This document shows, piece by piece, positions 11,401 through 53,330 of a DNA stretch of 64,000 nt; the stretch's first letter is position 1; the number at the start of each line of letters is the position of its first letter. The notes below the pieces were generated by a model. It ran no database searches, was not told the DNA's origin, and saw only the letters and a list, made by a program, of their open reading frames with translations. A program made the position numbers and the translations under genes. The DNA is from a virus (taxonomy: Duplodnaviria; Caudoviricetes), in IMG/VR virus record IMGVR_UViG_3300021400_001327, positions 1-64,000 of that record; one strand, given 5' to 3'.

Positions 11401-14400
11401 CGATCATCAACTGTGTGCGAAGCTCTTCGGTCTGCTGTCTGAGGTCGTTCTTCGTCTGCTCGTCTGTGAAGTTCAGCGGTCCCTTGTCGACCAACGCCTG
11501 ATATTGTGCTTCGACATTGGCAAGCTCCTGTTCAAGAGACGCGACCTCATCCTTGGATTCCTTCCAAGACGCAGTGGCATCGTCTGCCGCTTGTGTAGCA
11601 ATCTGTTCAGCATTAGCCGCGTTGTTCCACGCTTCGCCGATTTTGCCAAGAGCCCACATGACAGCTGAAATAGCCGCCATCGCCCCGAGGTTGGCAAGCA
11701 ATCCTTTGAACACGCCGCCAAGCGCTTTGATTTTCATGCCAGCAACAGTGGCGCCGTCACCGACCTGAATCAAACCCTTGCTATATTTCAGAGCGAACTC
11801 GGTCGCTCCATTCATTGTATAGTTCGCACCACCCATCGACTCCTGCATTGCAGAGATAGCTTTCTGAGTGGCCACCGTTTTATCGAGCGTCTGTCCGTAG
11901 AACTTATTGTACTGCTCGACAAAATTGCCGTCTACTTTTCCAGAGCTTTTTGAGCCGAACGGGAGCAGTGATGCAAACCCTGTTAAGGCATTGCCGCCAC
12001 CGAGCTTGGCCAACCCAATCGTTCCAAGCGCACCGAACGCGGGACCGATTGCCCCGATTTTGCTGATGAGACTATCGAGCGCATTCAGGATATTGGCGCC
12101 GCCGCCATAGAACATTTTGATCATGTCGCTGTTGACGACCGTCTGCGAGAGGTTTTCCCACGACGCCGTCAACTGAGCCTGCTTGGCCGCGATAGAGTCG
12201 AGCCAGCGGGCGTGTACTTCTTCCATCGTGCCAGCAGAGTTCTCTGATGTCTTAAGGATCTCCTCTGCACGGCTCATGTTATTGAGCAACGCGGCTACTT
12301 GGTTCGATCTGACTTTACCGGCGAGCAGTTCAAGCAACGCGCTCTGCTTGATGTCCGTCATGTCGTTCCAGACTTTGGAGATACCAAGCATAATGTCATA
12401 CAGGTTCTTGTATGTGTCCTCATCCTGCATGATGTCAAAGCCGCCTTTGCCGTCAATATTCGTCAGCGCGGCGACCTGTGCGCGGAGTTTAGAAGTCGAC
12501 TCGGCCATATTTGAAGTGTCTTCTCCGGCCTCTTCTACATTTTTGTTACTCCATCCTTCTGGACGGGGGTGGGTCATTTCTGCCCACCTCTACGATTTCA
12601 TGTTGTTATATTCGTAGATCAGACCATACCTTCATCTCATGGAGATGTGTGGCATACGCATAGCTGTCACCAGCTACGCTGTGGTCGTTACGGGATTCTT
12701 GTATGAATAATTGATAAATACAAGCCTTACCCTCGGAGTTGCCCTCTTCAGGGTTTTCTCCGATTTGAGCCACATGTTTACCCGACTGTCACCAGTCGGG
12801 GGAGCAAGAAGTTTACTCTGTTTTTGCGCCACGGATACGCATAGACATCGTCCTAATAGCGTTACCGGCGCTACTCGCGTCACGCGTGACTTCCGTGATG
12901 GCCGTGATCATAGCCGTCGCCTGGTCAAGGTCGACTCCAGTCAGGTTCAGTGCGCTGGCAGAACGCTGAAGACCAGCCGCGATATCAGACGCCGTTACAG
13001 CATACGCGTTAGCTACGGCGGTCATCTTGTCGCTAACAGCTTCGGCATCGCCGACATCCAGTCCATCAAAACCACGGATGATAGCAATCAACGCGTCCGA
13101 CGCATCGTTCACGCTTTGGAAGTTACCGGTGTTCGCGAACTTCGTGGTGACTGTACCGAGCTCTTGGCTTTCAGCCAGCGAGTAGCCCATGCGGCCATAC
13201 TCGGTAGCGGTGTTGATAAGGTCTGCCACAGACGAGCCGATGGCCACAGCCGTCTTGCCGCTCTGTTTCTGGAAGCGCTCATACGCCGCCGCAGACTCGT
13301 CAGTAACTTTGCGGAGCTCAGTCATCGCCGTATCGATCTGGGTGACGTAGCCAGCCATCTTCCTGACGGTGCCCATTACCCTCTGCACAGCCATGAACGC
13401 AGAGCCAACACCGAGCACACGAGACGCGAGCTTAGACAGCTTCCCGTCATACACGCCGACCAACGCACCGCCAGACTCAAACGACTCGTTCAGCGCCTTG
13501 ACTTGGTTCTGCATGGTCGCGAACGACTCTTTCGCGGCTTCAAGGTTGCCGCCCCGGTACTGTGCTTCGTAATCTCGACGCATCTCCTGATACTGCTTGT
13601 CAAGAGCGAGTTGCGCAGGGCTCCACTTTCTACGGTCACCATTCTTGCTATTGATGGCATTGACCTGCTCTTCAAGACCTTTAGCCTGTTCGCGCAGTTT
13701 GCCAAATGCGTCAATGGTCGATATTTCCTTAAGCCTCGCCTCACACTGTTCGAGCGCCGCGTTCAGTGCCTTCAGGTTAGCTTCGCTCTGATCGGCCTGA
13801 TATGCTGAGTAAGCCCCCTCAAGCCTGTTTTTTATGGCTGTACTCTCAACCCTGTCTCCGTCTTCCCGCTCGTGTTCAAACCCGAGTAGGCCGTAGTTTT
13901 TGTCGCCTCTGACTTTCTGGTACTGCTGGACGGCTTCGACGTGCGCTCTCGCTTCATCTGAGATTTGTCCAAGCGTGGACAATTGCTGGTTAAACTCAGC
14001 CAGCCCGTTCGGCGCCCGGAGGTCAATAGCATTCAGGCTGGCCAACGCATCCCTAAGCTCCCGAATCTTCTGGAGCTTTGATGAGTCGACATCGAGCGAG
14101 TCCATCCAACCGTTCAGTGTATCATTGACATTGTTACGCTTGGTGTTTGCCCGGAAGATGTCCTGATCAATGGTCCGCTGGCCACGCATGCGCTTGATTT
14201 CTTCACCGATGCGAGCCTGAAGCTGTGTTACTGAGCCACGGTCATCGACGTTCGCGGTCTGGAAGGCGGCGAGCATATTATCGATCACAGTCGTGTCGAG
14301 CGTATGTCCCATCTTCTGATAGGCTTCGCGCAGGCCGTTGACCTGATTAACGTAGCCTTCATAGGCAGACGCACGTCTGGCTTCCAGTGTATCGTGGGTA

Positions 14401-17400
14401 TGCTCGGCATTATTGTAATTAGCGTCGGCTTTCTCGAACTCCTTCTGGGCTTCAGCCGCCGCTTTGATTTGCGCTGTCAGGTTAGCAAAGGCGTCAGCGC
14501 GGTCGCTCAGAGAACTATCATCCTTGAGCCCCGTTACCTGATTGATAGCGGCCTCAAGGTCGCTCCTTTGCTTCGCTACCATCGGGCTGTCTGTGCTCAT
14601 GCGGGACAACAGGTCGTTGGCCTCAACAAGCTGTTTATCTTCTTTGTCCCTGCGCTTCGCAGTATCCAGTAGTCCCTGAAGCCCTCTCATCTGCGTGATG
14701 CGGGATTCAAGGTCGCCGGTGCCCTTGAAACGAGACAGGGCATCGACCACTTTACGCAGGTAATCTGGCAGTTTCGGGGACGACATGCCGCCGTACGGCT
14801 GTGCCATCGTGGCAACCTGATTCCTGATGTTTTCAGCCTGTTTGTTCTGACCGGGCACCATCCTATACTGTCTGCGGTTCTGTTTGCCGAGCTTCTCGTT
14901 ACTCTGCTGGCGGCTTCTCCACTTCGGATACTTCACGTCGAGGTCATCGCGCATCGTCGCCATGTTTTCTTCGATTTCCCGCATGGCCGCATTGCGCTCA
15001 TCAGCGCTCTGCGCTTTGCGGTATCTTGCGATGGCCTTTCTCGCGGCGTCGAACTCCGGCGGCAGTCCGCCAGACCCACCGTTCATGGCGTTATATTTGT
15101 TTTTATACTGTCCCATCGTGACAGTGCTAATGCGGTTGACCTTGCGGTTCTCTTTTGCCAGACGGGTCTGTTCTTTCTGGGCTTTGTTCTGCTCTACCTG
15201 AACGCGATGTTGGTCACGGTATGCAGATGTCTGCTCACGATAAGAACGGGTAACAGCGTTCATGGCCTTTGCCATAGCGTTGTATGCGTCGACTCTGACC
15301 TGTGGGTTATCTTTGGCTGCCTGACTCTGGAAATCCTGATACGCCTTATCGAAATCACCGAAAAGCGAAGAACGACCAGCGCTATCGAACGTTTCATCTA
15401 TGCCGATTGCTCTGAACTGATTGATGAACAGTTTTCTCTGGGAAAGCATGTCCTCAACATATGTGTCCATCTTCTCGACAGCACTGCTCGCCCATTTCTT
15501 CTGCATCTGTTTATTCAGGGCGCCAACACTGATTTCTAAATCTTTTACGGCGCTTTTGGCTTCTTGCAGGGCGTTTACGTCTTCGACGTTAATAAGGTCT
15601 ATCTTCCCAGCGTCATCGACTGTGGCAATTTGCATCCACTGCTTAAGTAACTCGTTCTTGTTTGGATCGCCCTGCATGACCGGCAGTTCGTACATAGCCT
15701 TCATCTTGTTAACAAGAGCTAACCTTTGCCGCTCATACTCCCTTTGGAAAGAGTCGAGCTTGCTTTTGTTAGCCATTGTGGCGATGTTGTTGTATAGTGT
15801 AGAATACTCTATATTTCCATCGTCGCCTACATTTGCGTCAAACCTGTACTGTGCGCGAACCTGTTCGCCAGACCCATACTTTTTATCGGCACCAGAGATA
15901 TTGATGCCGCGAAGTATACCGTTGGCCCCAAACAAACCAGTAATGGTTTTCTCTATAGCGCCGCCATTGTCGCCCAGAGAATCAAAAATTCTCTGAATCT
16001 CTCCTCCAACCTCACCAAGATTCAGAGAATTCAAAACTGTTTTTAGTTGTTCGAGAGATTCAAAATACCTAATCGTTCCACCGGGTGGTAAGTCATCTCC
16101 GCCGCCGCCAGACCCGCCACCGGGTCCGCGTCCGCCGCCCCCAACGCCGCTCATCAACTGCTTGTGCTCATCGTTGGCTTTGTTCTTTTTGTCGATTTGT
16201 TCCTGAAGCTTGCCCGCGTTGCGCTGACTTTCCTGTAAGTCCTTCTGGGCAGCCTGTTCGCTCTTCTTCGCGTCTGCGGCTTCCTTCTTTGCGGTCTCGG
16301 CTTTCTGCTTCTCTTGATTGAATTTCGTTTCCGCCTTCTCAGCCTTCTTCTCCGCCTGCTCTACCTGCTTCTTCAGTCTCGCGTTTTCCTTCTGAAGGTC
16401 AGAGTTTTGCTTCGACAGGTCTTTATCTTTCTGCTTGTTCTCGCTGGCCTGCTTCTGCGCTTCCGCGTTTTTCTGCTCGAGATTAGCGACCTTCTTCTCT
16501 GCATTCTGCGCCCGCTTTTCAGCTTGCGCAACCTTCCGCTCTGCTTCCTGTCTGGCTTTGTCGCTATCTTTGGCCTGCTTCTGCGCTTCATCGAGTTTAG
16601 CCTGCGTGTCCTGATCGGTTGAGGTTTTGCCTTTTTTGCCGCTACCTTTCTTGCCGCCGCCAGAGCCGTCTTCGTTCTGCCTTGTGCTCTGTTTCTTTTG
16701 TTCTTGCTTTTGCGCGGCCTGCTTTTGTGCGTTAGCCAACTGAGCTTTTAGACTGGCAATTTCTTCGTCTTTCGCGGCAGACTCTTTGCGGGCTTGCTGA
16801 GCTTCCTGTTGGGCGTGAGCAACATCGGCTTTCGCCTTAACAGCCTCCTCTTGTGCCTTTTGCGCTTCACGCGTAGCGCGGTTTTTGGCCTGTGATTCAG
16901 CAAGTTTATCGGCGTCTTCCTTATCATATTTTGCTATATCGCTATACGCCCTTTCTATAGAATTGACAAGGCTTTCTACTTGGGATGAAAAACTGCCGAT
17001 ATCTTCAATCGCAGAGGCGGCATCACCACCGCGTAAATTCTTTATAGCTTGCCACTTATAAATATTGGCATACTCCACATTGTCGTAAATATTGGCAATA
17101 GACGCGTTGTCTCTGTGCTTTCTATAGGTTGTTCTGTCGATTGCGCCGAGAGCGTCAGTCATTTTGATTCTCTGAGCGGCGATGGCCGCATACGGGTTTG
17201 CCGCGATTTCTGCTCTTCTCTTAATATCGCTGGGATTGTTCCATATTGTTCCCTTGCCGTACGGCTTCTCGAGCGCTTCAAGAGTCTTTCTGATATCGCC
17301 GAATTCCTTCAGTGTTTGTCCATAATTGCTCATCTGAGAAGACAACTGGTCGAGCGCACTGACAAGCCTGTCTATACCTTTGTAGTTGGCATCTCCTTTT

Positions 17401-17648
17401 TCGTTATCGCCAAACCACGATTCATGGACTCTACCCCAGCCGTAGTAACGAAACTGGTCGCCGTTATTGCCGTCGCTTTTTTCATTAACTGTTTGATTGA
17501 TTGTTATGTTTGTGACGCCGCCGGACGCATTTCCACCCCTGCCATTATTTCCAAGCGCTGAATCGATCCGATCTAATATCTGGTTGAACTGCGCACCGGT
17601 TATCCCCGAATTCGGTATCTTTCCACCAATATTCACTTTTCTTGCCAT
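2420..17648 (-). CDS. Giant tail tape measure protein, spliced (exons 17648-12815 and 12537-2420; ~4,983 aa)
   Basis: TP901-type TMP motifs (IDTAMTELRKVT, ANAYAVTASDIAAGLQRSASAL, LLELLAGKVRSNQVAALL). Removing 12538-12814 gives ...MRIRGAKTE-L-EEAGEDT in frame. Confidence 0.9.
12538..12814 (-). ncRNA. Group I intron (277 nt, no homing endonuclease ORF) in the tape measure gene
   Basis: 5' exon ends in U and pairs GAGU/GCUC (P1, U-G). P4 UCGGAG/CUCCGA; R CGUAACGACCAC and S AAGGUAUGGUCU (P7 GACCA/UGGUC); ends in G. Splicing restores the frame. Confidence 0.9.
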
Positions 17649-17663
17649 GTATTTCCACCGCCT

Positions 17664-18287
17664 TTATTTCATAGATGATAATAGTTCTGAAACCGCTTCA
17701 TTGAGCGCGTTTTCATGTATCTCTGGTAGCACATCTTGTATCTCATTCAACACCATTTGCCATGCTCGTGTTTGGTCGTACTCTTCATCGTACACTTGAT
17801 AAAAATCACGCGGTGGATGGAAGTCTCCCCTGTACCGATGGTGCCTTGGCAGCGGATAACTATAGCCATAGCCACCAATGACCTGGGGCTCCAGCATACC
17901 GTCACCGCTACCCTTATCTGTTTGTCCGGGTGGTGTGATATTAATCATTTCACCGCTGAAGTTGATGTAATCGCCACTTATGGCTCCATCGGCAATATTG
18001 ATAACTACGTTGCTTGGGTCTCCAAGACCTCCACTACTTCCGCGTCTTACATAATAAGGCATCTCGTTATGATAAGCACCATAAACATACCGATGCACAC
18101 CCTGCACAACCAGACCTGATATATAATCCCATATATCTCCACCATCAGCACACAGTGTTTGTATGGCCTCCTGAAGTACGGGTAATAGCATTTCAGCAAA
18201 ATGCTTTTTGTATACGTTGTTAAAGTCTTCTAAACTAAACGCCACCCATATCACTCCAATCTTCCTATATTCAGTGCGTTTCTGCAC
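17664..18287 (-). CDS. Hypothetical protein upstream of the TMP, possibly a tail component (likely start GTG ~18245)
   Basis: ORF track and position; GGAGTG RBS precedes the internal GTG. Confidence 0.5.
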   Translation of the reverse strand: MQKRTEYRKIGVIWVAFSLEDFNNVYKKHFAEMLLPVLQEAIQTLCADGGDIWDYISGLVVQGVHRYVYGAYHNEMPYYVRRGSSGGLGDPSNVVINIADGAISGDYINFSGEMINITPPGQTDKGSGDGMLEPQVIGGYGYSYPLPRHHRYRGDFHPPRDFYQVYDEEYDQTRAWQMVLNEIQDVLPEIHENALNEAVSELLSSMK

Positions 18288-18336: not shown

Positions 18337-18342
18337 TACTGT

Positions 18343-25197: not shown

Positions 25198-25263
25198 TGT
25201 CAGTAGCGCCGCTCATAACAACAGTGTCGAGGTTTATTACCTTCGCCATAACATCACCGCCTA

Positions 25264-25479
25264 TTACTCGATGACGTTGATCATATCGAGCAGCATCATT
25301 TTCGCCAACGCAAGCGTGATGTTGTCAGGCTCGCTATTCATAAAATCGATATCGTATAACGTTTTTTCGTCGAGAAAACTGAGATCGTAATCGTCAATAT
25401 CGTTCAGAGCGCCAAGGACTTTGGCTGTCGCCCAGCGTTTCAGAAGCCGTTTCAGCAATGTATATTCTACGACATCCAT
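25264..25479 (-). CDS. Hypothetical protein
   Basis: 71-aa ORF in the operon. Confidence 0.55.
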   Translation of the reverse strand: MDVVEYTLLKRLLKRWATAKVLGALNDIDDYDLSFLDEKTLYDIDFMNSEPDNITLALAKMMLLDMINVIE

Positions 25480-25484
25480 TTACA

Positions 25485-25703
25485 TCACACTTCTTCGCTG
25501 GCATCATGCCATTTATTGTCGTTACCGAGTATGAATATCACCTTCAGGTCTGGCGTATAAGCGACGGATCCAGGAGCGCAACGTTCAGAGGCCAGGACAC
25601 TCTGGTTGTCTGGCAGCGACGCGACATCAGATTTGCTGTCGATCAGATATGTTTTATGCATAGACGAATTATATGTCTGTCCGATTTTCAACAGTGTAAC
25701 CAC
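25485..25703 (-). CDS. Hypothetical protein (small fibre-associated family)
   Basis: AAGGAGG RBS; CAPGSVAY...ILGNDNKW motif. Confidence 0.6.
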   Translation of the reverse strand: MVTLLKIGQTYNSSMHKTYLIDSKSDVASLPDNQSVLASERCAPGSVAYTPDLKVIFILGNDNKWHDASEEV

Positions 25704-25738
25704 ACTATCGCCTCCTTATTTCATTTTCTGTATATAAT

Positions 25739-25885
25739 TTATTTTTCAAACTGTTCTCCTGTAATCTCTTCATATTCATCTTTTCTGATCCATCCCTTAA
25801 TCACAGCATTCTTAACAGCCTTCTTCTTCCAGAATCCGGCTTTATAATAACCTTTAACTAATTCAAACTTCTCACTATGTTCCAT
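25739..25885 (-). CDS. XkdX-family protein (48 aa; absent from the ORF track)
   Basis: MEHSEKFELVKGYYKAGFWKKKAVKNAVIKGWIRKDEYEEITGEQFEK; its ATG overlaps the upstream TGA. Confidence 0.85.
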   Translation of the reverse strand: MEHSEKFELVKGYYKAGFWKKKAVKNAVIKGWIRKDEYEEITGEQFEK

Positions 25886-26043
25886 CACTCTTCCTCCTCT
25901 TCATCTTCTTCTGCGTTAGGATCTTCGAGCAGACCCATCATGATATTGTAATCAGTGATCGCTTTCAGCTGCGCGGCCCTCGCCTGCGTGTTCTCACTCT
26001 CGTGCCGCTGCAGGATCGTTTCTGTCGGTCTGATAACTTTCAT
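25885..26043 (-). CDS. Small protein upstream of XkdX (52 aa; absent from the ORF track)
   Basis: MKVIRPTETILQRHESENTQARAAQLKAITDYNIMMGLLEDPNAEEDEEEE; GAGG RBS. Confidence 0.7.
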   Translation of the reverse strand: MKVIRPTETILQRHESENTQARAAQLKAITDYNIMMGLLEDPNAEEDEEEEE

Positions 26044-26108
26044 ATACCTCTTCCTTTCCGGCATTCAACAATGCCTTTACCTTCTTACAAGATTCGATAT
26101 CGATATTA

Positions 26109-26132
26109 CCCCTCCGGTGGTGGCCGGAGGGG
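26109..26132. promoter_or_regulatory. GC hairpin just downstream of the fibre gene (DGR-type target hairpin candidate)
   Basis: CCCCTCCGG-TGGTGG-CCGGAGGGG, 10 nt after the stop, with no U-tract in the sense direction. Confidence 0.5.
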
Positions 26133-26142
26133 ATGAAAAATG

Positions 26143-29100
26143 TTAAGATTTGGAAATTTTACAGGCGGGGCGCCCCCTCAGCGCCTCGGACGCGCCTGAG
26201 CCGCCGCCGACCATGCCTCCGAAGTTGACAAACCACACGTAGTGGGCGTGTGGGCGATTGCACGAACGCAAGCGCACAACGACAGGGGACGAGTGGTCGT
26301 CGAGCCTGTGGCTGATCAGGATTGGATACGTATTGCCCTGCAAGAACTTGCCGGAAAGCCCGGCCTCCTGTGCGAGCGTCTTATAATAATCCCAATCCTT
26401 ACCTTCGACATTGGCGAATTGCGGTGTGATGTAGGTCTCCTGCAGGCTCTTCAGGAAGATCCGATCCGTCGTCGTTTCGGTCGTGACAGAACCGGAAGAA
26501 TCAAAATTGTTCAATGCGGTTACAACCTCGACCGGCTCAAGGATATTCAGGAAGTCCTCGGAACACCCGGCCAGCCAGCCGCGCAGTGTCGCTGCCGCAG
26601 CAGGCGGCCTGTCCCAATCGTTCTGCGGTGTCCACCAGTCCCCGGCCGCCGCTGTAGAATTCAGGTACTGTCGCATCGCTGACTGGCTCCAGCGGTTATA
26701 TCCATACACGACACGGCTGACGGCGTTCAGCTGCCCGGACGGCGTGTGCGCGTTTGTCGCGCCGATCGTGCCAAGAGATGTTCCGCCTGTCCCGTTCGAC
26801 GTCGTACCGTGTTCCTTCGATACAGTTGAGCCCTTTGCGTATACGTTCCATGTTCTCCCGTTCGTCGGGTTGTTGGCGTTGTTCGTCCCGCAGTCAATGA
26901 CCAACTGATCACCCTCCACCATCGCGTTTGCCAGCGTGAACTTGATCGCCTTCCCGGCAACCCAGCCGCTACCGAAATTGACACCGATATCGATGTGATA
27001 CGTCCCGGCTGGCAGCCCGCCTGCCGCCGCGTAATAGATCGCCTCTGGCTCATCGAACGGTACACCGTCCGGCGTTGCGTAATGTTGCTCAAGATATGTC
27101 CCGTCAGCACCGTGATGTACCACATCCCAGGGTGCGTCGTAATTTGTACCGCCCGCAGCATTCTCCCAGGTATCAGAAATCTGTGAACCGACAGGTGCGT
27201 ACTCTTGAATCAACCCTGCTTTAACCAACTTTTTAAATGTACTCCAATTATCGATTTCATCATGGAATGCGGCTACCGTCTGAGCTAACTGTAAAACAGA
27301 AATTTCATCGCTTGTGCCGGCTTTGATTTTGAGATCGCCTGCGAGAGTCTCGTTGCCGTTCCAATCGAGAGTTCTGGCGTTAGATCTTGTATTATTTGTG
27401 CCGTTTCCAACAATCTCAACATAATTGCCTTTATGATAACTATCAGCTTCTGAATTATCCGGAACATTGAATTCACCAAAGACATGCTGCGACATATGGT
27501 TTGCAACAGTACCGGTACCTTCAGCATGAGCATTGAAGCCAGATGCGACAGTATCGCCACCTTCAGCGTGAGCATTTATGCCAGATGCGGTAGTACTGCC
27601 ACCTTCGGCGTGAGCTTGTGGACCAGATGCGGTAGTACCGCCACCTTCAGCGTGAGCGTTTACATTGGATGCGGTAGTAGTTCCGCCTTCAGCGTGAGCG
27701 TTTACACCAGACGCGGTAGCACTGTAGCCAATTGCAGAAGAATTATTACCAGACGCCAAACTGCCGTTTCCTGCAGCGATTGCGCTGGAACCAGTAGCAT
27801 CGCTGCTGCCAAGTTTTAATGAACCAGCTATCCATTCATTGCCGTTCCAGTCTAACATTCTGGCATTAGATCTTGCATTATAGGTGCCGTTTCCAACTAT
27901 CTCTACATAATTGCCTCTTTCATTACTCTCAGCTGATGAATCATCTGGAATATTATATTCGCCAAAGACATGCTGAGCATTATGGTTAGCTACAGTATTA
28001 CTTCCTTCAGCGTGAGCACATGAACCAGATGCGGTAGTACTGCCGCCTTCAGCATGAGCACATAAACCAGATGCGGTAGTACTGCCGCCTTCAGCATGAG
28101 CCTGTGCGCCAGATGCGGTAGTACTGCCGCCTTCAGCATGAGCATTTGCATCAGATGCTGTAGTGCCACTGCCTTCAGCGTGAGCACATGAACCAGATGC
28201 GGTGACGCTTCCACCCATTGCAGAAGAATAATCACCAGACGCCAGACTTCCGCCTCCCGTGGCGATTGCGCCGTACCCTGTTGCTCTTGATCCACCACCA
28301 ACAGCGAGAGCGCCGCTATTATGTGTCGCAGTGCTTCCATCACCTATAGCAATACCATGTCCAGATACAGTTTGCGACATATTGCTACTACCAAGTTTTA
28401 ATGAACCAGATATCCATTCGTTGCCGCTCCAATCAAGGGTGCGAGCGTTAGAACGACTTTGTTCAGTACCGTTACCGACGATTTCTGCATATAAACCTTC
28501 AGTGGTGGAGTTACCTGATTCTTGTATGTTGTATTTACCAAAAACATGTTGCGTTTTTCTCGAAGCAATAGTATGACCACCTTCAGCGTGAGAATTTTCA
28601 CCAATGGCTGCAGTATTATAGCCTTCAGCGTGAGAATTCATACCTGACGCTACAGTTTCATATCCTTCTGCGTGAGAATCGCTACCAGACGCTACTGTTT
28701 GATAGCCTTCGGCGTGAGAATAATAATTTGTAGCACAAGTGTTATATCCTTCGGAATGCGACGCTTGTGCTCTGGCACCAGTAAGATATTTATTTGATGA
28801 AATAGTAATTTCTTTATTATAACGGTATCCTTCTGCATGAGCTCCCTCTCCAGTTGCCTTTGTTTGGTATCCTTCTGCGTGAGATGTATTGGAAGCCTGC
28901 GTTTGACACCCTTCTGAATGACTACCTAAATCGGCAGCCATTGTTAAATATCCTTCTGAATGTGATGCATTTCCGTATGCTCCTGGTATATATGAATCAC
29001 CAGCTACATCAATACTGTTATTATTTGATCCATATCCTTCAGCATGAGCCTGAGGGCCTTTCGCGTATGTTGCGTGTCCTTCAGCATGAGAGTATGGACT

Positions 29101-30006
29101 ATCGGCCGTTGAGTATGCGCCTTCAGAGTGTGCGTATGAGCTATTCGCTTTTGTTTGGTATCCTTCTGCGTGAGAGTAAGAACCTAACGACTCTGAGTTA
29201 TATCCTTCTGCGTGTGAATTTTCACCAGAAGCAGTAGTAGCGCTACCTTCTGCATGTGATCCACTGCCGGAAGCAGTAGTGCCGCCGCCTTCTGCATGCG
29301 ATTGTGAACCTGAAGCGCTGGTACCGCCTCCTTCAGCGTGGGCATTTACACCAGACGCGGTGGTGCCAATGCCTTCAGCGTGTGAACAATTATTAGACGC
29401 TCTTGTACCGGAACCTTCAGCATGTGAGTTATCGCCGGAAGCAGTAGTACCGCCACCTTCTGCATGGGAGCCAGCTCCAGATGCTGTCGTCCCAGCACCT
29501 TCTGAGTGAGCGCCAAAAGCTGTTGCGTGAGTTGTCCCACCTTCTGCGTGAGAATAACCGCCTGTCGCTTGCGTATTATTTCCCTCTGCGTGAGACCACT
29601 CACCAGATGCAAGAGTGCCGTTGCCTTCGGCATGCGAAATTTCGCCAATGGCTGCAGTGTTATATCCCTCTGCATAGGACATATTTCCTGTTGCTGAAAC
29701 TTCGTCACCCAGCGCCACGCTCTTCGCTCCAACCGTAATCCCGGCTTTCCTTCCCATACTCAGCGTAGTATTCAGTACAGTATCTGTCTTATCAGCTTTA
29801 TCGTTCATCGCGCTCTCGACGTCCTGCATGACACCGTCAACAGACTCCTGCAGCTCCCCGACAGCGGCATCGATTATTTTCATATTACTGTCGTCCCCTG
29901 TCCCGGCGATCTTCGCACGCCAGGCAGAGAACTTCATTTGTTTGTCCTCAGCGCTATTCGAGATGAGGTTAAGTCCTAAATTTTCGGTTTGTTCCATTTT
30001 CTTCAC
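26143..30006 (-). CDS. Tail fibre/adhesin: YadA-head-like 14-aa HAEG repeats plus a DUF6273/C-lectin-like C-terminal domain
   Basis: Dozens of xSHAEGxxTxASG repeats; C-terminal YNRWSQSAMRQYLNS...DRIFL...RLRS...RPAC. Confidence 0.8.
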   Translation of the reverse strand: MKKMEQTENLGLNLISNSAEDKQMKFSAWRAKIAGTGDDSNMKIIDAAVGELQESVDGVMQDVESAMNDKADKTDTVLNTTLSMGRKAGITVGAKSVALGDEVSATGNMSYAEGYNTAAIGEISHAEGNGTLASGEWSHAEGNNTQATGGYSHAEGGTTHATAFGAHSEGAGTTASGAGSHAEGGGTTASGDNSHAEGSGTRASNNCSHAEGIGTTASGVNAHAEGGGTSASGSQSHAEGGGTTASGSGSHAEGSATTASGENSHAEGYNSESLGSYSHAEGYQTKANSSYAHSEGAYSTADSPYSHAEGHATYAKGPQAHAEGYGSNNNSIDVAGDSYIPGAYGNASHSEGYLTMAADLGSHSEGCQTQASNTSHAEGYQTKATGEGAHAEGYRYNKEITISSNKYLTGARAQASHSEGYNTCATNYYSHAEGYQTVASGSDSHAEGYETVASGMNSHAEGYNTAAIGENSHAEGGHTIASRKTQHVFGKYNIQESGNSTTEGLYAEIVGNGTEQSRSNARTLDWSGNEWISGSLKLGSSNMSQTVSGHGIAIGDGSTATHNSGALAVGGGSRATGYGAIATGGGSLASGDYSSAMGGSVTASGSCAHAEGSGTTASDANAHAEGGSTTASGAQAHAEGGSTTASGLCAHAEGGSTTASGSCAHAEGSNTVANHNAQHVFGEYNIPDDSSAESNERGNYVEIVGNGTYNARSNARMLDWNGNEWIAGSLKLGSSDATGSSAIAAGNGSLASGNNSSAIGYSATASGVNAHAEGGTTTASNVNAHAEGGGTTASGPQAHAEGGSTTASGINAHAEGGDTVASGFNAHAEGTGTVANHMSQHVFGEFNVPDNSEADSYHKGNYVEIVGNGTNNTRSNARTLDWNGNETLAGDLKIKAGTSDEISVLQLAQTVAAFHDEIDNWSTFKKLVKAGLIQEYAPVGSQISDTWENAAGGTNYDAPWDVVHHGADGTYLEQHYATPDGVPFDEPEAIYYAAAGGLPAGTYHIDIGVNFGSGWVAGKAIKFTLANAMVEGDQLVIDCGTNNANNPTNGRTWNVYAKGSTVSKEHGTTSNGTGGTSLGTIGATNAHTPSGQLNAVSRVVYGYNRWSQSAMRQYLNSTAAAGDWWTPQNDWDRPPAAAATLRGWLAGCSEDFLNILEPVEVVTALNNFDSSGSVTTETTTDRIFLKSLQETYITPQFANVEGKDWDYYKTLAQEAGLSGKFLQGNTYPILISHRLDDHSSPVVVRLRSCNRPHAHYVWFVNFGGMVGGGSGASEALRGRPACKISKS

Positions 30007-31239: not shown

Positions 31240-32688
31240 TCAAGGTGTAACCGCAGGCTCTTCTGCTTCTTCGGCAGGCGGCTCAACTGTCGGGTCTTCG
31301 TTGTTGCCAGACCCACCGCCGGTTGTGGGCTCTTCGACCACAGCGGGCTCTTCATTGCCGCCAGACTCGCCGCCAGTAGCGGGCTCAACGGCTGGCTCCT
31401 CCTCCTGTTGCCACCCAGGTGTGCCAATCAATGTTCTGATGAGCGCGATCTCATCGGTCGATGGGACATTGTCTGCCTTACCAGACACTGTCTTCAGCGC
31501 CGCCAGTTCGCTGATAGACAGGTACGCGTCTCTGAAAGTGCTCTCTCCGCTGACGGGGTCTTCTTCCTCCCAGCCAATCTTGATACCGGCAGCCTGTCCG
31601 ATGTTGATATAGGGATAGTTGTTCCCGTCTGCGCCGTCCTGAATCAACGTCGTGTTGATGACGAGCGTCTTGTTTTTCTGGGTGTTCGGTATTTCAACGC
31701 CTGCCGTTTGTAATTTGCCAGCCAGCATCTCATTGCCGCTCCAGTCCAGTGTGCGTGCATTGGCTCTCGTCGTCGGGCCATTACCGCGGCCGACGATTTC
31801 AATGTAATCGCCCCTCGCCGTGTTCGCCGCGCTCGATCCGTCTTCGGCATTATACTCACCGAACACATGCTGGCTCTTGTGATTCGCGATAGTTCCGTAA
31901 CCCTCGGCGTGAGAATAATTGCCGGACGCCGTCGTACTGCCGCCCTCCGCATGGCTGGCCATAGCCGAGGCTGTTGCGTTGTTTGTTCCTTCAGCGTGAG
32001 CATAATTGCCAGTAGCCCTGGTTGTGCCGCCTTCGGCGTGGCTACCAGTACCAGTCGCCTGAGTAGAGGCGCCCTCAGCGTGGCTGTTTTCGCCAGTTGC
32101 CTGCGTTGAGCCGCCCTCAGCATGGCTCCCGTCGCTGGTTGCAAGTGTTGCTGATCCCTCCGCGTGGCTCGACTCAGCCGATGCCTCAGACAAACGCCCC
32201 TCTGCATGACTCGCATAGCCAGAAGCCGTCGTGCTCATTCCTTCTGCGTGACTATACGCGCCCGTCGCGGTGTTTCCGCCTGACGTATTGCCGTAATAGC
32301 CCTCGACATGAGAGCCAGAGCCACTCCCGACATCATACGTCGACATTGTGACAGCCAAGACCTGGCTGGCCAAGAATGAATATGTGCCAGTACCGCTCCT
32401 GTCAGGAGCTCTCCAGCGATACAGCGTGTTGTCACAGATAAACAGTTCGCCGTGCTTAATCGGTAAGTTGACCACGCCGCCGGTCGTTACGCGATTGGCG
32501 GGTACGAAATACGAGCCAAGATCACCGGTCTCTGTCTGTAGGTCGGTGATAGCGGCCTCGGCGCTTGTCGTTCTTGTTTGCAGGTCAGAGACGGCGGTGT
32601 CGCTGGCCGCGATGCCATCTTCCATCCTGTTGAGGTCGGCAGAGGTGATTTTATTCGCCTTCGCCCACGTCTTTTTATTGTATGACAT
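31240..32688 (-). CDS. HAEG-repeat fibre protein, paralogue 3
   Basis: N-terminal YNKKTW...ITSADLNRMEDGI anchor; HAEG repeats; acidic Pro/Glu-rich tail. Confidence 0.75.
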   Translation of the reverse strand: MSYNKKTWAKANKITSADLNRMEDGIAASDTAVSDLQTRTTSAEAAITDLQTETGDLGSYFVPANRVTTGGVVNLPIKHGELFICDNTLYRWRAPDRSGTGTYSFLASQVLAVTMSTYDVGSGSGSHVEGYYGNTSGGNTATGAYSHAEGMSTTASGYASHAEGRLSEASAESSHAEGSATLATSDGSHAEGGSTQATGENSHAEGASTQATGTGSHAEGGTTRATGNYAHAEGTNNATASAMASHAEGGSTTASGNYSHAEGYGTIANHKSQHVFGEYNAEDGSSAANTARGDYIEIVGRGNGPTTRANARTLDWSGNEMLAGKLQTAGVEIPNTQKNKTLVINTTLIQDGADGNNYPYINIGQAAGIKIGWEEEDPVSGESTFRDAYLSISELAALKTVSGKADNVPSTDEIALIRTLIGTPGWQQEEEPAVEPATGGESGGNEEPAVVEEPTTGGGSGNNEDPTVEPPAEEAEEPAVTP

Positions 32689-35094: not shown

Positions 35095-36292
35095 TTACTG
35101 CTCGGGTACAGTGACGGTGAACAGCTTCTTCTCGTGGTCGCAGTAGTCCTGCATGCAGCGCAGCGTGAAGGGATGCTGACCATCGGTGGTGAAGTCAACG
35201 TCGAACTCAGAGCTCAGCTTCGCAGCCGGGAAGTCGACATAGGCATAGTACTTGGTGGTGATATCGCAGGTGTCGTGGCCGAGGACCTCAAGCAGGAAGC
35301 GGCCAGCATCCGGGAAGTTGATGGCGTCCGCCACAGCCTGCACAGCGCCGTTGCCATCAGTGCCATCGGCGGTGTAGGTGTAGAAGGCCAGCACCTTGGT
35401 GTCCACAGTCACATTGGTGGGCGGGGTGATGGTCTTGGTCGCCGCGTTCACAGAGAACACATTAGCACCGGCAGAAGCCGCAACTTCGTACTTGGTGCCG
35501 AGGGTGCCGTCGGGGTTCACGACGTACAGATAGGGAACTTCCGCACCGGCGGTGCCAATCGGGATATGCTTCAGCTGAACGGTCACGCCGTTCTTGATGG
35601 TGAGCTCTTCGGAGACGGTAACGTCAATGGTAGCATTGGCGGCAGCCGTCTTCTTCTGAGTACCAGACTGAGCGGCCAGCAGGCCAAGGTCAAACAGCGC
35701 GTTGGCGGCGCTGAACTCACACTGCTTATTGCGCTCAACTTTTTGTTGTGCCATGCTCGCTACACATGACAGGCTGATTACTCAGCGCCTTGTACTTTCG
35801 CACAAGAACAGACTATATCTTCTCCCGCTTTGGGAGTGCATTACTTCGACCGTCAATCGCTTACGGTCTACTCCATATAGGATAGTCGTTGAACCTTCCT
35901 GTTTCCAGACTCGGCTGCTGATTGTCCATTGTTTGGCGTTTAGGTTTTACCCATGCGTCATACATACACTTTTTTCTGCTTTCGCTCTATTACGTTTGCG
36001 TTTCTCTCTATCGCTCCGTTTTAGCAGTATGTCTTTAGGATGTCCCAGCAATTCTATGCATCAATTATTACGCCGCTTTCGCGACGCCGACGCTCTGTTG
36101 CGCGTTGGGTTACGCTAACCACGTCATGATCGGTACACCGATAGCGTCAACAGCATCTTCGGAGTCCGCAGTCATGCTGAGGGACGGGTCGGTGATCTGG
36201 GTCAGAGTCCAGAGCAGATCAAAGGTACCCTTCTTGAACATCGTGCCACGGATGGCGCGATCAATAACAAAAGAAGAAATATCAAATGCCAT
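35095..36292 (-). CDS. Major tail (tube) protein, spliced (exons 36292-36121 and 35738-35095; 271 aa)
   Basis: Splicing gives ...DAIGVPIMT-F-ERNKQCEFSAANALFDLGLLAAQSG...; codon usage looks highly expressed; lies after the neck genes. Confidence 0.85.
35739..36120 (-). ncRNA. Group I intron (382 nt, no ORF) in the tail tube gene
   Basis: P AAUUGCUGGGACA, Q AAUCAGCAGCC, R GUUCAACGACUA, S AAGAUAUAGUC; P1 GACGU/GCGUC; U before the 5' splice site and terminal G. Confidence 0.93.
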
Positions 36293-46829: not shown

Positions 46830-46916
46830 CCCACTACAATCGCATTAAGGCAGCGAAACGCCATATGTTACGGCTCGCTGGCATAAGCCACCAACAGCGG
46901 CGCAGCCTGTAACTTC

Positions 46917-48173: not shown

Positions 48174-48903
48174 CAGCCCACTCGGCGACCTGGCCGCGCC
48201 GCGACTTGGTCAACTGTGTATAATCACACAGGTCTGGCCGCTTCATAAAATGCTCTATATATGGCACAAAACCGCTGAGACGTTTGTTTGGCAGGTCGAT
48301 TTGCTCGCGATGGCCGATGACCACCACAAGGCTATTGTCGAACACACGCGTCAGCAAAAGCCGCATTTCGTCTACCGTGGCGTTCTGCGCCTCGTCGATG
48401 ATAACGATGGCCCTGTTGTCCGGGTCATTACTGCCGAGGTTGCACCCACGCATATACATCTGCCCACTACAATAGATAGGGTTGTCGATGGCTGTCTCTT
48501 CGTCGATGTCGCCATAGCATATCTTCCTGTCGGGGCTGAGACCGGCAGTGATAAGCGCTTGCTCCACAGGGATGAAGTACGGCTTCGTCTTCTCCAGAAG
48601 ACCCGGCCTGTATCCTACCTTTGATTCAGCAGAGCCGCCCATTGCGCGGATGTAATAGGTTTTGTTGGCAAGTCCGTAGTCCATAGCGATCACAGCCAGC
48701 AGTACTGCCAGCGTAGTCTTACCAGACCCGCTCTTGCCTTCAACAAAAACCACCTTCCCGTTTTTGGCGCCCCGCCACATCAGATCAACATAGTGGCGCT
48801 GCTCATCGTTCATGCTCTTTGCGAGCCCGAAGAATGGTGAGTCCTCGAGCGTTTCCGGCGGTGCCTCGCGTTCTGCGGGACGTGTACTCTTTCTTGTTGC
48901 CAA
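48118..48903 (-). CDS. phoH: PhoH-family ATPase
   Basis: GKSGSGKT, YMRGCNL, IIDEAQN, LLTRV...VVVIGH..QID. Confidence 0.88.
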   Translation of the reverse strand: MATRKSTRPAEREAPPETLEDSPFFGLAKSMNDEQRHYVDLMWRGAKNGKVVFVEGKSGSGKTTLAVLLAVIAMDYGLANKTYYIRAMGGSAESKVGYRPGLLEKTKPYFIPVEQALITAGLSPDRKICYGDIDEETAIDNPIYCSGQMYMRGCNLGSNDPDNRAIVIIDEAQNATVDEMRLLLTRVFDNSLVVVIGHREQIDLPNKRLSGFVPYIEHFMKRPDLCDYTQLTKSRRGQVAEWADDIYSRSDEIGTGIEEKR

Positions 48904-48930
48904 GCGGTCTCCACATCCTTTCGTAAAAGA

Positions 48931-49626
48931 TCAGAAGATAATATCTTCAACCTTTGTGATGATGGCATCAGCAATACCGCAGTCAACGGCCTCAGCAGAA
49001 CTCATATATGTATCTGTCTGCATAAACCGTTCCACATTAACACGCGGTATCTTCGTGCGGTCAACAACCATATCAACCATATCGACGACCTGCATATCCC
49101 ACTGCTTCATGCTGTTATGCGCAGACCTGTGGTCCATACTCATGCCATCCACAGACCCGCGATGCATCATGAACCAGCTATGCTTCGTCGCGAAGCGCTT
49201 GTGGCAGGCCAGATAGATAAAGAACGCCGCGCTGTAAGCGATACCGAAGTTGATACCATAGACAGGCGTGGTGCTCATTTGAATGGCGTCATACAACTGC
49301 ATACAGGCATCGAGCTCTCCGCCGTGTGAGTTGATCATGATACAGATAGGCAGGCGCTTGTCCACCGGCGTTTCTGTGTCATCACGATTCCACTGGATGA
49401 TGCGCCGCACGATTTTCGTGGCGCCCTCTACATCGATATCGTCGTCGATCCACACGATACGGTTCATGTCGTCCTGCATGGCTTGCAACTCATCAGGTCC
49501 CGGCACTGAGCCAAGATTGCCATCGCAGTCACAATCGTCGAGTACGATCCCCATCTCTTTGGCTTGTTCCTCAGTGATATACTGAATGTTTTCCTCACTT
49601 TTCATACTGCCGCTTCTCCTTCTCAA
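48931..49626 (-). CDS. clpP: ClpP-family protease
   Basis: INSHGG, AYSAA (Ser), MMHRG (His), TDTYMSSAEAV..GIAD. Confidence 0.85.
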   Translation of the reverse strand: MRRRSGSMKSEENIQYITEEQAKEMGIVLDDCDCDGNLGSVPGPDELQAMQDDMNRIVWIDDDIDVEGATKIVRRIIQWNRDDTETPVDKRLPICIMINSHGGELDACMQLYDAIQMSTTPVYGINFGIAYSAAFFIYLACHKRFATKHSWFMMHRGSVDGMSMDHRSAHNSMKQWDMQVVDMVDMVVDRTKIPRVNVERFMQTDTYMSSAEAVDCGIADAIITKVEDIIF

Positions 49627-49771
49627 AATTCTTCAGCGCGTTCAGCACCTTCATGCTCTCCTCCACATAATACCTGTGGCGTTGGCTATGGGCTTTCATC
49701 GTTCTGACAATGTTGAGATTGGGGAATCGACCTCTCAAATATTCCGCTTCTTCTTTGCCGATAAGTACCAT
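49595..49771 (-). CDS. Small hypothetical protein (MVLIGKEEAEYLR...RYYVEE)
   Basis: Internal ATG preceded by an AAGGAG RBS. Confidence 0.6.
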   Translation of the reverse strand: MVLIGKEEAEYLRGRFPNLNIVRTMKAHSQRHRYYVEESMKVLNALKNFEKEKRQYEK

Positions 49772-49798
49772 ACAAAGAACTCCTTCACGTAAATTCCC

Positions 49799-49864
49799 GA
49801 TACAGATCGGGTGATACAACTATGATGATACAAGTTGGCCGATACATAATTATATATCATAGTT
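49799..49864. promoter_or_regulatory. Phased GATACA x4 array upstream of the late operon
   Basis: GATACA at 49799, 49813, 49827 and 49841 (exact 14-bp period), plus the inverted pair AACTATGAT/ATCATAGTT. Confidence 0.55.
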
Positions 49865-49882
49865 TCCTATAACACGACGAAA

Positions 49883-50569
49883 TCAGCGAGAACCAAGACG
49901 CAGAGCCGCATACAGCGCCTCGATGTCGTTGTCGATAAGTTCGTGCTCTCCTGTATTTTTATATGGCACAAGCAGTTTGAAGCATGACACAGAGCGGCGA
50001 TATTTTGAGAAACGACCAGCGGCCTTGCCTTTGTCTGTATCTACCTTTGCGATGTATTGCCACTCGCACAGGCGGCGGATATTGCGCCCGCGAACGTTGG
50101 CGCCTTTCATATCCAGCCAATTAGCCAGTTGCTCGGTTGACGCCTGAAACACCCCACGCCTGTCAGCGAACGCCTTTGCATTGCACAACAGGGCAAGCGC
50201 CACCTTCCTGTCTGTCTCTGTCGGCGCATGGTCCACGATATTCTGGGCGTCTGTCTCTGATACGAACACACGACAGCCACTGTGAAGCTCGGCTTCATTG
50301 ATGTACGCAGCGTTGACGCACTGAAGGAGATTCAGCCCGTTCGTCTTGTGGCCATTCAGCCAATCACGAATAAAGGAGACGGCGTCCACTGGGGACTCGC
50401 CGTCTGCCTTCATCAGCTTGGATATCATATAACATGCCCGATACAGCCGACTCTGCTCCTCTGGCGGCTGTCCAGACATATACTTCTTAACTTCCGCGAC
50501 CTCGTCAATCATCGTCATCCTCCAGAAAATCAAAGATGCCCGGTTCAAGCGAGATGTCCATCTCGTCAC
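49883..50569 (-). CDS. Hypothetical protein with a possible winged-helix domain (likely start ~50512-50518)
   Basis: STEQLANWLDMKGANVRGRNIRRLCEWQYI resembles a wHTH; lies directly after the RNAP gene. Confidence 0.5.
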   Translation of the reverse strand: MTRWTSRLNRASLIFWRMTMIDEVAEVKKYMSGQPPEEQSRLYRACYMISKLMKADGESPVDAVSFIRDWLNGHKTNGLNLLQCVNAAYINEAELHSGCRVFVSETDAQNIVDHAPTETDRKVALALLCNAKAFADRRGVFQASTEQLANWLDMKGANVRGRNIRRLCEWQYIAKVDTDKGKAAGRFSKYRRSVSCFKLLVPYKNTGEHELIDNDIEALYAALRLGSR

Positions 50570-53330
50570 TGTTCATCGGGACCATCGTGTAGTGACGCCC
50601 AAGATAGCTGAGCTCGCCATCATCATCGCGCTTTGGCACCATGATGCCAGCCTGCGGCTTCACGTTCGCCACGACACCGTCCGGCGCCACGACCCAAGGG
50701 AACTTCCTTCCGCGCCCTTTGTACACCTCATGCACGAGCTTTGTAGCAATATTGGCCAGCACCCGCTGGTCATCACAAACCTCAGCGCACAGCTTCCTAT
50801 ACTTCTGATACAGCGCGTCCCAGTCGGCGATGAAGGTAGTCGCCTCGTACTTCGTAAACTGCTGTCTGATCTCACGGTCAGAGTACCGCCTGACTTTCGT
50901 CTGGTATTTCTGGAGCTCGTTCGTCTCCTTGCAGAAGTCTTTGAATATCTTGGCCACCGCGTCGAACTGCTCTTGTGTGTAGGCAATGCTCTCGTCGCAC
51001 ATCACACTGTAGTCGAATCGCTCCTTCCGCCGCCACTTAAGCTCACGTTCCCATTTCTCGAGCTCACGGCAGAGGCGGTTCATATTGCTCGGCGCTTTTG
51101 AAAGTTCCATCCTTGCGTAGTACGGCGACCGATACCGCATAAAATACGGGAGGGGTCTGCCCCACTTACTGATTACGCGGGGCATTGAATAAAGGACGCC
51201 GGTTTTTGCGTAATCGATGCTCTTCCCGACGATGGTACTGATAATGTCCTCATACTTCTCGTACCGCTCCTTCTGCTCATCTGTCTTCGGGCAGCGGTTC
51301 AGATATACACTCGCGTAGTTGCTGTACTCGCCAATCATATTCTTTGTTGTTCTGGTCAACAGCAGGACGCGACCGGCGGCGTCGTTGTTTTCCTTCAGGG
51401 CTGTGACCTTGTCTTCCATGTCGATAACGATAGTGGCGTTTTTGTCCGACCCGTCCAGGAAGAGCGGGTTGTCATTGACCAGTACGATATCACCCATAAC
51501 CCACCGGCTTTCGCCGATGGCCGGACTATTTCTTTACCCATTGCTGGGCAGCTGGCACTTCGCCGACTGGAGTTTCACCAGCCAGCTACTCCTTACGGAT
51601 AGTCTCTACACCTTCCTCTCACGAGGCTTGGCACGGCATTGTCCTGCGCTCATGCGTTTAGAGTTTTGCCGTTAGCCGACCCAAAAGTCCATATATTATT
51701 GATAGTGGTCATTTGGTCCGACACCCCAGTTGTCTGGGTTCACCAGCTTTTCATCATCACGTTACCGTGATGCGCGACAGTGTTACTTATCGAAATCCGC
51801 ACCGTTCAATCTCTGCGCCACTAAGCTCTTTATGTTCAGCATAGCCACATTTGTCAGGTGGCCGCACCATTTCCAAATCTCGTCCGCGTTATTCACTCGG
51901 AGCACTACGTTCTCGCTCCGGCAGATGTGCGGGTTTCTTGTCACGACGTATTCCCCGTCGTACGTGATGCCCTTGCCTTTCGTCCAGAACTCATCGGCGC
52001 CGAGACAGCCGACAACCGGAAGTCCGCCAATGTGTTCCGCAAACGCGATCAGGTCTGGGGCGATAAACTTGAAGCATGACTTAATGTACAGCTTACCGCA
52101 CTTCATATCGTTGATAAACTTGTCCAGCAGGGACATGATGTATTTGTTCACTGTTGGCTCTTTCATCATGGCGTCGTTCTTAGCAATCGCCGCCACGTAC
52201 GCGTTCAGCGCGTTGCACTTCCCGTCTACGATACCAAGGAAGCATTTGGTAAAAAGCTCGTCTCCGCTAACGATGCGCTCAATCCACCTCGCAGACTGGT
52301 GGGCCAAGGTCTTGAAGTCCTCATAGGGCAGGTCCAGCGTCTGCAAGACCTGATAATTGCTCCGTGTGTACACCGGCTCTTCCTCTTCGGTGAAGTTGGC
52401 GCGGGCAATAGAAATACAGTGTTCGTATTTATAGAACGCATCCCAGTACCGTTGCCAGTCCCTTGCGTCGCCGTACTGCTTGAAGTAGCCGAGCCCCTTG
52501 TACATGCTCTCGCTCAGGATGATCATCTCTTCGTGGATGCTGTGCTTCTGCCCCCACAGGTCCTCAATATACTCGACGCCGCGCTCCTCGTAGAAGCCCT
52601 CGTAGTCGAAGACGTGAAGACACCCTTTAATGAACGGCTGCCTGTAGATGACGGTGGTGATGGGCGTTGTGCTGTTGGTCAGCGTCTCCATCCAGTGAGC
52701 CACGTTCTTATGCATGATGCCAACACCATCGAACGCGTTGATCTCGTAGTCGAACACGCCCTCGGCGATGTCCTTCTGCGTAAAGTTGAACTCTTTGCCT
52801 TCAGAGTTCGTGTACGTGGTCACCTTATCAACAAGGTGTTTGATGCGCTGGTTCTTGATGGTCGTCATCATGTCCGGCACAACGATCATCTTCGGCACAT
52901 AGTTCTCGATGCAGTGTGCTGATGAAAGCGCGAGCCCGCGATAGGCGTACCACTTGCTCAGTACCGTCTTGTCGATTTTCAGCCCCATCGTCACGCGCTC
53001 TGTGAGCTCGTCCGCTATCGAGGCATCGACCATCGACAGTACGCCCTGGCGCACCATAGACGCGCTGCGCTCGCCGAGCACGAACGGTCGCCCGCGTATC
53101 TTGATACCCTCCAGCGCAAGCCGCGACAGTGTAACAGCGATATCCTTGTGGTAGTTAATGTCCACGAAGATGATATACGGGTTGTACTTCGACGTCACGC
53201 CGGTGATGCGCCTGATCTGTCTCAGGTACTGGCTGTCGGCCTGCTTGATGAAATACTTCTTCTCTTCCTCTGGCGAGATATCCAGACTGAAATCTGCCTT
53301 TACGATCGTACGCAGATCAATCGAGCGCAC
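50505..53330 (-). CDS. yonO: YonO-like single-subunit (cellular RdRP-fold) DNA-dependent RNA polymerase, spliced (exons 53330-51789 and 51494-50505; ~843 aa)
   Basis: SASMVRQG, AFDGVG, RQPFIKG, VTRNPHI..SE, RLNGADFD|GD, GKSIDYAKTG; heads an SPbeta-like late cluster. Confidence 0.88.
51495..51788 (-). ncRNA. Group I intron (294 nt, no ORF) inside the RNAP catalytic DFDGD motif
   Basis: P1 CGAU/GUCG; P UAACGGCAAAA; Q AAUGCCGUGC; R GUGUAGAGACUA; S AAGAAAUAGUCC; P9 GAAA hairpin; terminal G. Confidence 0.93.

Follow-up and report, generated by a model that had tools for sequence, protein, structure and literature searches.

Three interrupted genes in one gene cluster

The window analysed here is the first 64 kb of the IMG/VR virus record IMGVR_UViG_3300021400_001327, which comprises 107,314 bp, including a terminal repeat of 107 bp, and is classed as complete. 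A single long cluster on its minus strand runs from the gene for a YonO-like single-subunit RNA polymerase (53330-50505) through the genes for a ClpP-like protease, PhoH, an exonuclease, the terminase, the portal and the head proteins to the tail tube gene, further tail and lysis genes, and a giant tape-measure-like gene (17648-2420). Three genes of this cluster, for the tape-measure-like protein, the tail tube and the RNA polymerase, are interrupted by group I introns on the same strand, termed I1, I2 and I3 (Table 1). The closest cultured relatives of the phage are the Thomasclavelia phages TR-TP1 and TR-TP2, with RNA polymerase 44% identical, and Enterocloster bolteae phages. The SPbeta-like Bacillus phages are remoter relatives, connected via YonO.

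At the gathering threshold, Rfam reports no family in the window, and a tRNA scan was also negative. The group I intron family RF00028 has a gathering score of 50 bits, and the introns surface only in permissive scans. These return exactly three RF00028 matches on the minus strand, each filling the gap between two collinear open reading frames (ORFs). The intron borders were set by comparison with relatives that lack the intron. An initial annotation, made from the sequence letters without database searches, had proposed introns of 277, 382 and 294 nucleotides (nt), and the intronless relatives bear out its borders to the base. The names given there to the host genes also stand. The RNA polymerase is recognised by homology to YonO, and the tape-measure-like protein by the PF10145 domain and tape-measure PHROGs. 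The tail tube protein is recognised by its fold: the AlphaFold model of an intronless homologue (mean predicted local distance difference test score 85.7) has 8xkn_B and 8ygm_A, the SPR-type tail tube, as top PDB matches (E 6e-15, template modelling score 0.70-0.77). The SPR/SPbeta-type tail tube protein of this fold (8ygm, 8xkn) triggers the DSR2 defence system.

Precise excision of each intron restores a continuous gene that is colinear with intronless homologues (a slash marks the splice site here and below). For I1, the spliced reading ..RIRGAKTELEEAGED.. agrees with ..RIRGAKTQLEEAGES.. in the intronless fragment L011, and the product is open over 4983 amino acids (aa). The I2-free fragments L012 and L013 are colinear with the junction 36121/35738, which removes 382 nt; the intronless tail tube protein reads ..PIMTFERNKQCEFS.., and that of L012 reads ..IPIMTFERNKQCEFS... 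For I3, which splits the DFD/GD motif of the polymerase, the intronless 864-aa protein of TR-TP1 aligns up to ..RLNGADFD and resumes with GDIVLV.. exactly 294 nt further on, in frame. The fragment L009 is colinear across the same 294 nt at the DNA level, and I3 is also missing from L010 and G002.

Table 1. Introns, exons, endonuclease ORFs and ribozyme candidates. Positions refer to the window; "genome" denotes the full record, and other records are named.
Feature	Position	Strand	Remarks
Intron I1	12538..12814	-	group I; 277 nt; ORF-free; RF00028 22.5 bits, full-length alignment
Tape-measure-like gene, exon 1	12815..17648	-	1611 codons + 1 nt; PF10145 domain cut at exon end
Tape-measure-like gene, exon 2	2420..12537	-	spliced reading compared with intronless L011
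Intron I2	35739..36120	-	group I, IA2-like core with P7.1/P7.2; 382 nt; ORF-free; RF00028 25.0 bits
Tail tube gene, exon 1	36121..36292	-	57 codons + 1 nt
Tail tube gene, exon 2	35095..35738	-	phrog_2729
Intron I3	51495..51788	-	group I, IA2-like core; 294 nt; ORF-free; RF00028 33.7 bits
YonO-like RNA polymerase gene, exon 1	51789..53330	-	end ..NGADFD
YonO-like RNA polymerase gene, exon 2	50505..51494	-	start GDIVL..
RF00028 match (I1)	12603-12824	-	22.5 bits
RF00028 match (I2)	35789-36035	-	25.0 bits
RF00028 match (I3)	51502-51798	-	33.7 bits
RNA polymerase site 2 introns	L008:5084-5389; L010:4825-5127		I3 homologue in ..KSID/YAKTG.., 282 nt downstream of the I3 site
Fourth group I intron	genome 92707-93549; L004:879-1721	+	843 nt; DNA polymerase III alpha, ..EIGD/IDTD..; paralogue of I3
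HNH_3 + NUMOD4 ORF	genome 92859-93449		196 aa; within the fourth intron
HNH ORF	genome 77371-77898		175 aa; inside C5 DNA methyltransferase gene (76600-78330, plus strand), other frame
HDV-like ribozyme candidate	62641-62700	+	minimal, without P4; RF00094 37.4 bits against gathering score 50, E 0.0025 (1.8-kb scan)
Twister-sister-like candidate	61587-61653	+	RF02681 28.5 bits against gathering score 34

Group I features

In all three cases, the base at position -1 is U and the intron closes with G. By inspection, each intron also has a P1 helix, in which a U.G wobble marks the splice site, and a P10 pairing to the next exon. In I1, exon GAGU pairs with the guide UUGCUC in P1, and CUUCU pairs with exon AGAAG in P10, as read from the sequence and the cmscan alignment; in P1 of I2, exon GACGU faces GCGUC, and in that of I3, exon CGAU faces the guide GUCG. 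The cmscan alignment of I1 contains the canonical helices P2 to P9, with a single hairpin between P7 and P3'. I2 and I3 have two hairpins at this place, candidates for the P7.1/P7.2 arrangement by which subgroup IA2 is recognised. They also share the phage IA2-type motifs GACTATCC..GGAGTAG (P7 to P7.1) and AAGA[TA]ATAGTC (J8/7 to P7), which a whole-genome motif scan finds nowhere outside the introns. The cores of both match introns of many cultured phages, those similar to I2 being found in Enterocloster, Bacillus, Staphylococcus and T5-like phages. The three introns have no significant pairwise similarity, and each has its own relatives elsewhere. The initial annotation had described different core sequences; this is right in so far as the lineages are separate, but I2 and I3 have the same standard core motifs.

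For I3 and its relatives, the fold is supported by covariation. The structure, built by hand for five aligned sequences and including the P3/P7 pseudoknot, has 91.4% of cells paired, compared with 34-42% when the partners are slid, and 26 pairs are changed on both sides, compared with 3-7 in the slid controls. This covariation support is limited to the I3 family; for I1 and I2, the fold is taken from the covariance-model alignment and motif identity.

As had been noted from the sequence, an in-frame stop lies 0-4 codons into each intron, counted from the 5' splice site. In I1 the stop U/AA straddles the site, in I2 it is the fourth codon (T/GG TTA GCG TAA) and in I3 the second (AAG TAA). The longest stop-free stretches are 60 codons in I1, 59 codons in I3, and 125 codons in I2, the last in antisense and without a Pfam match. 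An antisense ORF of 138 codons that spans I2 also has no match in Pfam.

The sub-threshold Rfam scores might be taken to mean that the genes are simply broken, as pseudogenes or by assembly errors, with junk DNA in between. We give this hardly any credence. The borders of the inserts are exact to the base, and frame and homology are restored in all three cases. Moreover, the terminal U and G are in place, P1 and P10 pair with the flanking exons, the P7 and J8/7 motifs are conserved, and covariation supports the fold.

Presence and absence in related phages

The comparison set consists of two complete relatives, G001 (116 kb) and G002 (113 kb), and several fragments. In G001 the sites of I1, I2 and I3 are empty, while a second site in the RNA polymerase gene (site 2) holds a 303-nt intron and the DNA polymerase III alpha gene an ORF-free intron of 325 nt. 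The present genome is empty at site 2 (about 51213/51212 of the window) and has an HNH-bearing intron in the polymerase III alpha gene. G002 is empty at the sites of I2 and I3 and at site 2, and its record contains no RF00028 match. Of the fragments that cover the RNA polymerase sites only, L008 has introns at both (259 nt at the I3 site, 306 nt at site 2) and L009 at neither. L011, which covers the tape-measure site, is 99% identical to the present genome (flanks 96-99%) and lacks I1. L014, which covers the tail tube site, has an intron of 1215 nt with a 294-aa LAGLIDADG ORF at exactly the place of I2. I1, I2 and I3 thus come and go independently among close relatives, as a patchwork, which agrees with the earlier proposal of independent acquisitions retained without a homing gene.

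I1 has no match at the DNA level among cultured phage records, and its relatives were found in IMG/VR only, where another dozen viral contigs contain I1-like introns. Those of L031, L033, L040 and L029 are free of ORFs, and the exon flanks in L029 correspond to the present tape-measure site. Others carry ORFs of 220-310 aa, with a treble-clef zinc finger and CapR in L030 and DUF2726 in L038. Of 992 aligned positions around the I1 site, 37 distinguish the present genome from L011, and 20 of these 37 fall within -4..+44, nearly all in the 3' exon. Both intron-bearing alleles (this genome and L029) read CAGAGT/TAGAAGA, the sequence that pairs with the guide, whereas the intronless alleles of L011 and G001 read ..AGC/TTG.. 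or ..AGC/TGG.., with C instead of U at -1. To judge from the aligned alleles, the tract of differences looks like co-conversion of the flanking exon during homing or recombination.

In the tape-measure-like protein, the sole recognisable domain, PF10145, lies around residues 1467-1670, and the other ~4700 of the 4983 residues have no Pfam match. The gene is found downstream of the endolysin gene, which is an unusual position. Tail length usually scales with about 1.5 Å per residue, and if the protein truly sets tail length, a tail of ~0.7 micrometre is predicted.

In three phages, the backbone of I2 hosts nuclease ORFs of three kinds, each at a different position within the intron. Its core is 70-79% identical to those of the TR-TP1 tape-measure intron (ORF annotated as HNH), the CB457P2 intron (GIY-YIG) and the L014 intron (LAGLIDADG), and I2 itself has no ORF. 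With the zinc-finger/CapR and DUF2726 versions of I1, nuclease-bearing forms of the same backbones therefore exist elsewhere. A stretch of ~75 nt in I2 had been considered as a relic of the L014 LAGLIDADG ORF; this was rejected, since in the intron of Enterocloster phage CB457P2 these nucleotides form an uninterrupted part of the non-coding backbone. Traces of the tail tube intron are also visible in protein collections. Among the tail tube homologues, at least six clusters (90% identity) start with intron-derived residues followed by VER[NA]K.CEFS, and many others are full length. The VER[NA]K.CEFS-type entries are exon-2 ORFs of intron-bearing alleles.

The distribution bears on the suggestion, made in the initial annotation, that the introns are domesticated as a layered splicing gate, kept because slow or regulated splicing times or throttles the output of RNA polymerase, tail tube and tape measure. 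The location of all three introns in one long minus-strand cluster, from the polymerase gene to the tape-measure gene, would suit such a role. The same is true of the position of I3 in the catalytic DFDGD motif, where unspliced RNA yields a dead enzyme, and the need to coordinate splicing with translation is accepted in reviews (PMC3984707). Nevertheless, we consider the gate very improbable. I1 is missing from a 99%-identical relative, neither I2 nor I3 is present at these sites in the complete relatives G001 and G002, and an intron related to I3 is present in the replication polymerase. Early stops are typical of phage introns at large, and so is insertion into conserved catalytic sites (PMC2504315). 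Scanned permissively with Rfam over its whole length, the window yields no riboswitch or aptamer beside any of the introns, and thus no sign of the ligand aptamer that defines allosteric group I introns of the Clostridioides difficile cyclic di-GMP type.

Endonuclease genes and a fourth intron

As the initial annotation had stated, the introns contain no endonuclease ORF, and the window contains no homing endonuclease gene according to ORF analysis and six-frame Pfam searches (HNH, HNH_3, GIY-YIG, LAGLIDADG_1, LAGLIDADG_3, DUF2726, DUF4379). It had also proposed extending the search to the rest of the genome, and there the same six-frame search finds two HNH ORFs, both beyond the window, one of them inside a fourth group I intron.

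The fourth intron interrupts the DNA polymerase III alpha gene at a site that comparison with E. coli DnaE suggests to be the catalytic aspartate motif. It carries its own endonuclease ORF (HNH_3/NUMOD4), the hallmark of a homing intron that I1 to I3 lack. The statement that all introns lie in late genes accordingly holds inside the window only. Even there, to judge from SPbeta YonO, the YonO-like polymerase gene presumably drives late transcription rather than being a late structural gene itself. The ORF-free intron of G001 in the polymerase III alpha gene retains a strong AAAGGAGGT just before the point where the HNH ORF would start. This has the appearance of an orphan ribosome-binding site at a deletion point, and therefore suggests that the endonuclease gene has been lost from the G001 intron.

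The second HNH ORF lies in a C5 DNA methyltransferase gene. Compared with G001, it corresponds to an insertion of ~526 nt, which is too small for a ribozyme. The methyltransferase gene itself appears frameshifted at its GSPC catalytic motif.

The presence of these ORFs raises the question whether I1 to I3 home with the help of an endonuclease encoded elsewhere, which would cut the intronless alleles. Candidates would be the HNH enzyme of the polymerase III alpha intron, its counterpart from the methyltransferase gene, or an enzyme that a co-infecting phage supplies. There is precedent in T4, where free-standing endonucleases mobilise ORF-less or defunct introns (PMC2790892, PMC3984707). One of the two HNH ORFs resides within a paralogue of I3, and the flank of I1 resembles a recent conversion tract. 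However, the target sites have only CGAT before the insertion point in common, and the same tract is expected from ordinary recombination or from the donor phage's own endonuclease. We therefore think mobilisation in trans unlikely, though less so than the splicing gate.

Relatives of I3 at three sites

The introns at RNA polymerase site 1 (the I3 site), at RNA polymerase site 2 and in the polymerase III alpha gene are homologous (alignment A3, 68% mean column identity), and the copy in the polymerase III alpha gene is known both with and without the HNH gene. The 5' exons end with ..TTCGAT, ..ATCGAT and ..GGCGAT, and have nothing in common beyond these few bases. Each site is preceded by [C/U]GAU, 4-5 nt that match the guide sequence. 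In the polymerase III alpha gene of G001, the exon reads ..GGTGAT and the guide has the matching G-to-A change, so that exon and guide covary.

These observations raise the possibility, which we hold only tentatively, that the I3 family moved between non-homologous sites within this phage lineage, with targets chosen by a guide of 4-6 nt, either by reverse splicing or by another form of guide-constrained ectopic insertion. The three-site family is a lead and not a demonstration, because an insertion can function only if it matches the guide, by whichever route at the DNA level it arose. Two scans of viral contigs for further members returned only generic IA2-type cores and no new close relatives, so that the argument from the guide sequence concerns three sites. 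In ribosomal DNA (rDNA), the occurrence of related group I introns at different sites is regarded as circumstantial evidence for transposition by reverse splicing (PMC3984707). The I3 family resembles the rDNA introns in being present at different sites, each preceded by 4-5 nt that pair with the guide, but differs in that its targets are protein-coding phage genes; its transposition is putative.

Other features of the window

The minus-strand genes are interrupted by a gap of 945 nt with low GC (0.42; 25198-26142), which contains a lone plus-strand ORF (25458-25847, 129 aa) without a Pfam match. Next to it, a 1287-aa protein (26143-30006, minus strand) has eight stretches that match phrog_25468 (function unknown), and the same repeat is found in a 482-aa neighbour (31240-32688). 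Two plus-strand ribozyme candidates, one similar to the hepatitis delta virus (HDV) ribozyme and one to twister-sister, are listed in Table 1.

Discussion

Taken together, the data are best explained if I1, I2 and I3 are genuine group I introns of the phage IA type, unrelated to one another, and selfish mobile elements at an endonuclease-free stage of the homing cycle. We assign this explanation a probability of roughly 85%. Each intron, probably self-splicing, would be removed from the mRNA by the usual two transesterifications. The short internal guide that steers them would pair with the last bases of one exon, where U.G marks the splice site, and with the beginning of the next. An in-frame stop just inside the intron is a known means of halting ribosomes so that the ribozyme can fold, and would serve for this here. 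The introns would have entered one by one, each through recombination with an intron-bearing relative in a co-infected cell, with a short piece of flanking exon carried along, and each is probably still polymorphic in the population. The sporadic distribution, the co-conversion-like tract and the nuclease-bearing versions elsewhere fit an ordinary homing cycle.

Several observations weigh against this explanation. All three Rfam scores are below the gathering score of RF00028, whereas the related introns of TR-TP1 and CB457P2 reach 54.6 and 95.9 bits. In the P4-P6 region of I3, two additional hairpins follow P3, ahead of P4, and do not readily fit the standard scheme. Instead of the present genome having gained I1, L011 could equally have lost it, by conversion from an intronless donor; whichever the direction, the gain or loss is recent. 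Finally, with the remnant reading of the ~75 nt dropped, the ORF-free state of I2 could be either ancestral or derived.

The arrangement has published precedents. In prophages of the Bacillus cereus group, Tourasse and Kolsto (2008) described introns at three tape-measure sites and in tail tube and terminase genes, with several introns per prophage, early stops and asymmetric co-conversion tracts (PMC2504315). Phage group I introns generally have a stop close to the 5' splice site (PMC2504315, PMC3984707), and the review by Hausner gives ribosome stalling as its rationale (PMC3984707). With introns in tape-measure and tail tube genes and with early stops, the pattern noticed in the initial annotation is thus already in the literature. 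The likeness to the Bacillus introns extends to tape-measure and tail tube hosts, several introns per phage, many of them ORF-less, a stop at or near the 5' splice site, the sporadic distribution and the asymmetric co-conversion tracts. The differences, as far as the published descriptions can be compared, are the YonO-type, SPbeta-like 107-kb metagenome phage as host and the other insertion sites (PMC2504315). A literature search for YonO together with introns found nothing relevant.

The introns of Twort orf142 and of T4 td, nrdB and nrdD (IA2) are likewise small, have P7.1/P7.2 and protein-coding hosts, and in some cases lack a working endonuclease. Twort has three introns in one gene and T4 has them in nucleotide-metabolism genes, whereas here they are in virion genes and in the gene for a single-subunit RNA polymerase. 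Splicing of the Twort and T4 introns depends on ribosome stalling at the early stop (see the review PMC3984707).

In the form in which it was first described, the finding is of little import: group I introns that lack an ORF, have an early stop and reside in tape-measure or tail tube genes are textbook phage parasites. There is a practical consequence for annotation, since the YonO-type polymerase, tail tube and tape-measure genes of gut- or rumen-type phages will be miscalled as split unless sub-threshold Rfam matches are checked. The lineage also provides a compact natural series: across genomes that are 70-99% identical, one and the same site may be vacant, filled by an ORF-free intron or filled by one with an endonuclease gene. 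Such a series is well suited to measuring how introns are gained and lost, and how flanks are co-converted, in the course of homing. In addition, one intron family at three guide-matched sites in two polymerase genes makes the old and unproven idea of guide-directed transposition testable. If true, it would be a natural, phage-borne and protein-coding case of a pathway for which the support has so far been circumstantial and confined to rDNA.

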